Source: a virus
Lineage: Duplodnaviria; Heunggongvirae; Uroviricota; Caudoviricetes
Strand: one strand, 5' to 3'
DNA: 9,788 nucleotides
Virus record (IMG/VR): IMGVR_UViG_2693429554_000021
Span: 1 to 9,788 of that record
Shown: in pieces, positions 2,814 to 3,681 of the stretch
Numbering within the stretch: the stretch's first letter is position 1
Layout of the letters: each line of letters starts with the position of its first letter
Made by a program: the position numbers and the translations under genes
The notes under the pieces: generated by a model
Told to the model about the DNA's origin: nothing
What the model saw: the letters and a program-made list of their open reading frames with translations, nothing else
Databases searched by the model: none

Positions 2814-3681
2814 TCGGGAAACTCAGAGCGCATTATCCTGTGGTCACACTCTGCCATGTGTTCGGGGTTCATCGCAGCAGCTACAGATACTGGAAAAACC
2901 GTCCTGAAAAACCAGACGGCAGACGGGCTGTATTACGCAGTCAGGTACTTGAGTTGCATAACATCAGCCATGGTTCTGCCGGGGCAAGAAGCATCGCCAC
3001 AATGGCAACCCTGATAGGCTTCAGAATGGGGCGCTGGCTTGCCGGCAGGCTCATGAAAGAACTGGGACTGGTCAGTTCTTTCATGAGCCTGCGCACCGTT
3101 ATAAACGAGGTGGTCGTGAACATGTCACTATCCCGAATCACCTTGGGCGGCAGTTCGCAGTGACAGAGCCAAATCAGGTATGGTGCGGCGACGTGACGTA
3201 CATCTGGACGGGGAAACGTTGGGCATACCTTGCCGTTGTTCTCGACCTGTTTGCAAGGAAACCGGTAGGTTGGGCAATGTCGTTCTCTCCAGACAGCAGA
3301 CTGACCATCAAAGCGCTGAAAATGGCCTGGGAAATCCGCAGTAAACCAGCCGGGGTAATGTTCCACAGCGATCAGGGCAGCCACTATACAAGCAGGCAGT
3401 TCCGGCAGTTACTGTGGCGTTACCAGATCAAACAGAGTCTGAGTCGACGAGGAAATTGCTGGGATAACAGCCCGATGGAGCGCTTCTTCAGGAGTCTGAA
3501 AAACGAGTGGATACCGGTGACGGGTTACATGAACTTCAGCGATGCTGCCCATGAAATAACGGACTATATCGTTGGGTATTACAACGCGCTCAGGCCGCAC
3601 GAATATAACGGTGGGTTGCCACCAAATGAATCGGAAAACCGATACTGGAAAAACTCTAAAGCGGTGGCCAGTTTTTGTTGA
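2765..3681 (+). pseudogene. insO: IS911 orfB (InsO-like DDE transposase catalytic domain), disrupted by a frameshift near 3073-3090
   Basis: The N-terminal part is in the -1 frame relative to orfA and stops at 3161-3163; the C-terminal part (RYKRGG...[31 protein letters not shown]...[10 protein letters not shown]...) continues in a different frame to 3681. Both parts resemble IS3-family OrfB. Confidence 0.75.
3045..3092. repeat. 20-bp perfect inverted repeat with 8-bp spacer inside orfB
   Basis: GCAGGCTCATGAAAGAACTG (3045-3064) and CAGTTCTTTCATGAGCCTGC (3073-3092) are exact reverse complements; the orfB frame break maps to the right arm. Confidence 0.9.

Follow-up and report, generated by a model that had tools for sequence, protein, structure and literature searches.

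A probable templated conversion of a quasipalindrome into a perfect palindrome frameshifts the transposase of an IS911-like element in Escherichia coli

Genomic context of the insertion sequence

The window, by which we mean the whole 9,788-nt stretch of DNA analysed, comprises an insertion sequence (IS) of the IS911 type, preceded by smpB, ssrA and the P4-type integrase gene intA, and followed by the early region of a lambdoid prophage (Table 1). The last codons and the stop codon of intA lie inside the left inverted repeat (IRL) of the IS. The same IS occupies two chromosomal sites in E. coli: locus A, located in the espC island and organised as ssrA-intA, IS and integrase fragment, with intA as its left flank, and locus B, organised as thrW-integrase, IS and prophage. 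The window is a hybrid of the two: positions 1-2438 (smpB, ssrA, intA) are 100% identical to the ssrA island of strain EC12, and positions 3690-9788 are 100% identical to the thrW prophage of strains Z1323PEC0014 and 377323_2f. In none of the complete E. coli genomes is the window contiguous, and in genomes having both IS copies these are direct repeats 2.2-2.6 Mb apart. The join of ssrA-intA, IS and thrW prophage is also present in a metagenome contig (L022); it may reflect genuine recombination, or have been created during assembly across the 1.25-kb repeat.

Several other features of the flanks were recorded. The ssrA gene encodes the tmRNA tag ANDESYALAA (AGC codon), a variant common to EC12, RM14723 and Z1323HEC0355, the tag of E. 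coli K-12 being ANDENYALAA. A second perfect palindrome, of 15 bp with a 9-nt loop (1207-1221, TAGGCCCAACGAAAA; 1231-1245, TTTTCGTTGGGCCTA), sits just 5' of the start codon of intA. No target duplication borders the IS at locus A (CTT / AAT), and the right flank (position 6261 onward of the locus sequence L001) contains a second P4-type integrase gene; this gene is truncated at the 5' side and shares 77% identity with intA (window 1686-1865). Such an arrangement points to a deletion mediated by the IS, or to two tandem islands having recombined.

Table 1. Features of the window, with the two chromosomal sites at which the palindromic IS copy was found.
Feature	Position	Strand	Description
ssrA	698-1060		tag-coding part 787-822
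intA	1264-2454	+	ssrA-island integrase, P4 type; transferred by offset from the PGAP annotation of EC12, identical at this locus
IS911-like IS3-family insertion sequence	2439-3689	+	1251 bp (native allele 1249 bp)
IRL	2439-2474	+	matches the reverse-complemented right end at 24/36 positions
orfA	2511-2813	+	100 aa, HTH_Tnp_1; intact
Slippery heptamer A AAA AAG	2762-2768	+	programmed -1 frameshift producing OrfAB
orfB, 5' part (-1 frame)	2768-3163	+	native to OrfAB codon 189 (end 3077), then 28 aberrant codons, stop 3161-3163
Left arm of perfect inverted repeat	3045-3064	+	GCAGGCTCATGAAAGAACTG; 20 nt; same as ancestral sequence
Left arm, outer stem	3045-3051		GCAGGCT
Left arm, octamer	3052-3059		CATGAAAG
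Left arm, inner stem	3060-3064		AACTG
Loop between arms	3065-3072	+	GGACTGGT; 8 nt; same as ancestral sequence
Right arm of perfect inverted repeat	3073-3092	+	CAGTTCTTTCATGAGCCTGC; 20 nt
Right arm, inner stem	3073-3077		CAGTT; pre-existing
Mutation (new octamer of right arm)	3078-3085	+	CTTTCATG (8 nt) replacing ancestral GCCAGC (6 nt); net +2 nt
Right arm, outer stem	3086-3092		AGCCTGC; pre-existing
orfB remainder	3160-3681	+	rve / DDE catalytic domain, out of frame with the 5' part; Pfam rve E = 6e-32
IRR	3654-3689	+	partner of IRL, 24/36 matching
Locus A (ssrA island) with palindrome			EC12, Z1323PEC0014, 377323_2f, 382634_2f
Locus B (thrW prophage) with palindrome			Z1323PEC0014, 377323_2f, E2348/69

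The IS911-like element

The boundaries of the IS were set by the start and end of its homology to the copies at loci A and B, and its ends read TGTAGTGG.../...CCACTACA. The element displays the organization of the IS911 group of the IS3 family: two overlapping reading frames connected by an A AAA AAG -1 frameshift, an N-terminal helix-turn-helix and a C-terminal DDE (rve) domain, with HTH_Tnp_1, HTH_21 and rve as Pfam domains, the latter two carried by orfB. It also has terminal inverted repeats, which measure 36 bp in IS911 (PMC2909936), and a 3-bp target duplication at locus B (CTA-IS-CTA). The window copy is flanked by CTT and CTA, because its two flanks derive from different loci.

The initial annotation of this DNA had named the element IS911. 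The assignment to the IS3 family and the IS911 type stands; the name IS911 itself probably does not, since the nucleotide identity to IS911A of E. coli K-12 is 88-91% over the 764 bp retained there, in two IS911A fragments. IS911-like is therefore the safe label, given a comparison with these two fragments. The canonical OrfB continuation ...CQQPTH..., given in the same annotation, is indeed encoded by IS911A, while the lineage of the window's IS encodes ...CQQPAH.... At the site that corresponds to the palindrome described below, IS911A reads GCAGACT...AGCTG GGGCTGGT CAGTT GCCAGC AGCCGAC and has neither of the two complementary stems, so that the quasipalindrome is specific to this IS911-like sub-lineage.

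A perfect palindrome and its ancestral sequence

A 20-bp perfect palindrome with an 8-bp spacer had been reported inside orfB, and a repeat search of the window recovered it with the same arms and coordinates. The arms are 100% complementary over 20 nt, and no other hairpin-type inverted repeat of the window is as long as the one at 3045-3092; when the window was shuffled 100 times (first-order Markov), the longest perfect stem with a loop of 3-20 nt measured 7-11 bp. Folded as DNA, the palindrome reaches -23.2 kcal/mol (z = -10.1), versus -7.8 kcal/mol (z = -0.5) for the ancestral sequence, and the corresponding RNA folds are at -37.3 and -18.0.

The ancestral state is provided by other E. 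coli strains, where loci A and B are occupied by the same IS. Their native allele, GCAGGCT-CATGAAAG-AACTG-GGACTGGT-CAGTT-GCCAGC-AGCCTGC, is a quasipalindrome in which an 8/6-nt bubble separates an outer stem of 7 bp from an inner stem of 5 bp. This bubble is closed in the window, where the left-arm octamer reappears in the right arm as its exact reverse complement. The number of paired positions rises from 12 to 20 of 20, and the stems that border this patch, AACTG/CAGTT before it and GCAGGCT/AGCCTGC after it, were both already present in the native allele. Native IS copies of 1249 bp are found at locus A in RM14723 and Z1323HEC0355, and at locus B in SC434, 2015C-4136CT1 and Z1323HEC0355; PGAP annotates the native copies as an intact transposase with a 'programmed frameshift' (WP_085948123.1). 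These copies differ from the window's IS by the palindrome plus 0-3 SNPs (positions 2620, 3291 and 3306) and by nothing more, the palindrome being the sole difference in the case of the RM14723 locus-A copy.

A template switch was simulated on the RM14723 copy, by letting synthesis proceed through CAGTT, fold back on AACTG, copy 15 nt and return at AGCCTGC. The product agrees with the window's IS at 1251 of 1251 positions, so that a single templated event covers the four substitutions and the 2-nt insertion. The proposal that a quasipalindrome was converted into a perfect palindrome by a templated process is thus supported by the orthologous native copies as well as by the simulated switch, and alignment with the same-site copies confirms that the right arm replaces native sequence. 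No reference copy combining the palindrome with an intact orfB was found, the copies with an intact orfAB having the imperfect repeat. The reciprocal product, in which the left arm would be converted to GCTGGC, was not found in the 5426 complete E. coli genomes; a synthetic query for it retrieved native alleles only, at 95.2% identity.

Consequence for the transposase

As initially proposed, the left arm encodes ...AGRLMKEL... in the orfB frame and the frame breaks inside the right arm: frame 2 carries orfB up to the stop that ends at 3163, and the remainder of the gene lies in frame 1. The native OrfAB of 389 aa is replaced by a mutant product, OrfAB*, of 217 aa, which consists of 189 native and 28 aberrant residues and shows its first difference at residue 190. 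The motifs of the DDE region, at OrfAB residues 224-326, are all located 3' of the lesion, and the 2-nt gain is the only inactivating difference. The predicted truncation of OrfAB before the DDE domain bears out the claim that the palindrome inactivated the catalytic subunit; the window copy is, as judged from its reading frames, incapable of autonomous transposition. Its orfA and both its ends are intact, and transposase acting in trans could in principle still act on it.

OrfAB* would keep the helix-turn-helix, leucine-zipper and multimerisation regions and be devoid of the DDE domain. In IS911 the fragment OrfAB[1-149], which likewise lacks the DDE domain, binds the inverted repeats and bridges the ends better than the full-length protein (PMC2909936). 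By analogy with this fragment, the truncated OrfAB* might still bind IS ends.

Distribution of the palindromic allele in E. coli

In a set of 5426 complete E. coli genomes the palindromic allele is present in seven records from five strains, namely E2348/69 (three assemblies), EC12, 382634_2f, 377323_2f and Z1323PEC0014, while the native repeat, with an intact protein, is present in more than 400 E. coli records. The native allele is known from both loci as well, which makes the insertions older than the mutation; spread by transposition of the defective copy to loci A and B is ruled out by the native allele at both sites in sister strains. Two SNPs of the IS are informative with respect to the history of the allele. 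A3291 occurs in 8 of 438 records, which are the seven palindromic ones and the native locus-A copy of RM14723. T2620 is carried by the palindromic locus-B copies, as in the native locus-B copy of SC434. In the palindromic locus-B copy of 377323_2f the A6 run of the slippery heptamer is shortened to A5, which represents a second lesion or a homopolymer error.

The assemblies of strain E2348/69 disagree over the allele. The thrW copy has the palindrome in NC_011601.1, LT827011.1 and LT903847.1, i.e. in three of the four assemblies in the collection, and a detailed comparison was made between NC_011601.1 (270073-270943) and the fourth, CP059840.2 (NZ_CP059840.2, 3891770-3892638). NC_011601.1 has a second copy of the IS near ydcA, with the native allele. 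In CP059840.2 the thrW copy displays the native allele together with five SNPs, all of them as in the ydcA copy and distributed over at least 1168 bp, and the markers on either side of this replacement tract stay thrW-type. The difference would reflect either ectopic conversion in that particular stock or a polishing artefact.

The thrW and ydcA copies of NC_011601.1 are both interrupted by ISEc21, an element of the IS110 family. The insertion is found at the identical point, between window-equivalent positions 3372 and 3373 (...CACAGCGAT/CAGGGCAGCC), in four copies: E2348/69 thrW, E2348/69 ydcA, a metagenome contig and E. albertii pEA11_1 (positions L003 4348/4349, L012 3932/3933, L024 2232/2233 and L029 3347/3348). 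The insertion point directly follows the Asp codon of FHSDQGS, a conserved motif of the rve domain, and its repeated use suggests sequence-specific targeting by ISEc21.

Occurrence beyond E. coli

The conjugative plasmid pEA11_1 of Escherichia albertii harbors three copies of the IS (103394-104326, 6176-8794 and 28381-29164; L030-L032), which are 3-4% diverged and decayed, with 23 nonsynonymous and 12 synonymous changes and one indel. All three copies have the same palindrome with one mismatch (A3074T), and the nearest other differing sites are located only 30 and 22 bp outside of it. The copies show 3-13 mutual differences, and their similarity implies that the defective element, or a segment with it, was multiplied or homogenised after the mutation. 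A search for close native relatives of the pEA11_1 haplotype found none, and a haplotype-specific pattern matched nothing but a native copy, that of the E. albertii type strain. For the pEA11_1 palindrome an independent event or an older origin fits the divergence pattern better than a recent transfer.

In the plasmid collection the palindrome was found on pEA11_1 only, and the exact palindrome gave no match among the GTDB representatives (one genome per species). Contigs encoding a 107-aa ORF that is specific to the palindromic allele are present in 51 blocks of public assemblies, and the exact palindrome was recovered from two further metagenome contigs. Some short metagenome contigs have the palindrome with other flanks and on other haplotypes, and are viewed with caution, since sequences of different IS copies can be mixed in a de Bruijn assembly. 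The contigs with new flanks were set aside as evidence for mobility, as no target duplications were seen and short-read assemblies may mix copies.

The suggestion that the 48-bp hairpin represents a fragile site found no support in these data. The palindrome is unchanged in all eight copies in complete E. coli genomes, and no deletions or rearrangements centred on it were seen, its sole documented loss being through the replacement tract of at least 1.17 kb described above, which involves no local deletion. The pEA11_1 copies have kept it through approximately 3% divergence with one point change. The viability problems of E. coli concern much longer palindromes.

Origin of the palindrome

The palindrome and the resulting frameshift are very probably the product of a templated conversion of the quasipalindrome. 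Quasipalindromes are known mutation hotspots, and template switching within them has been established experimentally in E. coli (PMC7202029, citing Ripley 1982, Rosche 1997 and Seier 2011). In the proposed sequence of events the nascent strand, having copied ...AACTG-GGACTGGT-CAGTT, would stall during DNA synthesis, and its 3' end CAGTT would pair with AACTG, either within the same strand (fold-back) or across the fork, where the complementary arm offers the same sequence. Extension along the left arm as template would then write CTTTCATG-AGCCTGC, after which the nascent strand would rejoin its proper template via the pre-existing AGCCTGC. The mechanism is deduced from its product, and an intramolecular or a cross-fork switch, on the leading or the lagging strand, during replication or repair synthesis, would each be expected to leave the identical sequence.

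The same product would arise by hairpin-templated repair, the other version of Ripley's model, in which an imperfect hairpin forms in single-stranded DNA or a cruciform, and the right-arm bubble is excised and refilled from the left arm with no polymerase template switch at the fork. The ancestral repeat is foldable, with both stems in the predicted minimum-energy structure, but its DNA hairpin is weak (a z-score within the range of shuffled sequences, see above), and E. coli experiments credit such events to template switching during replication (PMC7202029); we regard this route as improbable. Even less credible is the idea that the palindrome was kept for a function, be it OrfAB* as a trans-dominant inhibitor of related IS copies or the hairpin in the mRNA. 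The retention of the first 189 residues, taken together with the end binding of IS911 OrfAB[1-149], and the persistence of the allele at two loci and in many metagenome samples are compatible with such a role. Against it, a scan of both strands of the window found nothing terminator-like at 3045-3092 (the tail reads GCACCGTTATAAAC, with no T-run), no signal for a promoter role of the hairpin was found there, and between 2950 and 3160 there is no X XXY YYZ heptamer for restoration of the frame by -1 slippage; the further lesions in other palindromic copies (the ISEc21 insertion, the A6 to A5 change in the slippery site, and the excess of nonsynonymous changes plus an indel on pEA11_1) look like decay, and the allele is rare (5 of 5426 genomes). 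An error of sequencing or assembly, to which the CP059840.2 assembly lacking the palindrome at thrW and the flanks of the window, adjacent in no complete genome, might point, is ruled out by the many independent records: seven complete records, independent of one another and with three of the four E2348/69 assemblies among them, have the identical 48 bp, and the palindrome is also present in E. albertii, in the 51 public-assembly blocks and in the two further metagenome contigs.

As to the number of events, the linkage of the palindrome to the rare SNP A3291 argues for one origin in E. coli plus recombination between copies, a reading that we consider somewhat favoured, resting as it does on few markers (2620 and 3291) and five strains. 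The palindrome would have arisen once on the A3291 haplotype, probably at locus A, and would then have passed to the thrW-prophage copy at locus B by homologous recombination or gene conversion; the transferred tract would span 3078-3291 and exclude 2620. Alternatively, the quasipalindrome could be a recurrent hotspot, at which the palindromes of locus A, locus B and E. albertii arose independently with the same product. The left arm dictates the outcome, so that independent events would be identical, as the simulated switch illustrates; the pEA11_1 copies, diverged as they are, have no long shared tract around the palindrome; metagenome contigs display it on several haplotypes, including G3291; and quasipalindromes have a record as hotspots (PMC7202029). 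Recurrence is nonetheless rather unlikely, as all palindromic copies in complete E. coli genomes carry the rare A3291, which independent events at locus B would not give, the reciprocal product is missing from the 5426 genomes, the palindrome is confined to five related strains versus the more than 400 carriers of the native repeat, and the metagenome haplotypes may be assembly mosaics. A more elaborate proposal, which we put forward tentatively and doubt more than we believe, is that of a deterministic self-inactivation hotspot built into this IS911-like sub-lineage, where the same 6-to-8-nt replacement occurred more than once, separately in the E2348/69-related E. coli lineage and on pEA11_1, with the allele then spread by gene conversion. 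If this were true, the spreading allele would be one that still encodes an end-binding OrfAB fragment.

Significance

The case is a natural instance, in an IS pseudogene, of a known mutational mechanism, and involves no new element or function. Its value lies in the unusual clarity with which it documents, in natural strains, a type of mutation known mostly from laboratory reporters: because the ancestral and derived alleles are found at the same sites in sister strains with no other difference between them, a base-by-base reconstruction of the event is possible. It also accounts for the 'frameshifted' annotation of the ssrA- and thrW-adjacent IS copies in the lineage of the enteropathogenic E. 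coli (EPEC) reference strain E2348/69, and provides, in the palindromic allele, a marker for recombination between dispersed IS copies, which extends to a possible divergence among stocks of E2348/69. What the case adds, modestly, is the transfer of the allele from one paralogous copy to another and the possibility that it arose more than once.

Comparison with known systems

The element resembles IS911 (K-12 IS911A; Chandler laboratory, PMC2909936) in its length of approximately 1.25 kb, its TG...CA-type ends with inverted repeats of about 36 bp, its orfA/orfB organization with an A AAA AAG -1 frameshift, the succession of helix-turn-helix, leucine-zipper and DDE (rve) regions, and the 3-bp target duplication. 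IS911A differs in its ends, which read TGAAGTGG where the window's IS has TGTAGTGG, and in the lack of a quasipalindrome at the site.

The distribution of the allele resembles ectopic gene conversion between dispersed IS copies, in which identical alleles and linked SNPs are found at different loci. The tract of at least 1.17 kb in CP059840.2, which matches a third copy, is of the same kind, read from a handful of markers and maybe a polishing artefact.

The mutation itself can be compared with the quasipalindrome-associated mutations of E. coli (Ripley 1982 model; thyA hotspot; lacZ QP5/QP6 reporters; PMC7202029). In both situations an imperfect repeat is made perfect by bases that constitute the reverse complement of the opposite arm, the stems flank the converted segment beforehand, and a clustered multi-base change with a frameshift is produced in a single event. 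Further traits of the class are its origin during replication, a strand bias and suppression by ExoI/ExoVII. Unlike the events scored in the E. coli reporters, the one described here is spontaneous, involves a comparatively large patch (6 nt replaced by 8 nt), and is fixed in natural isolates, in a gene of a mobile element and at two paralogous loci.
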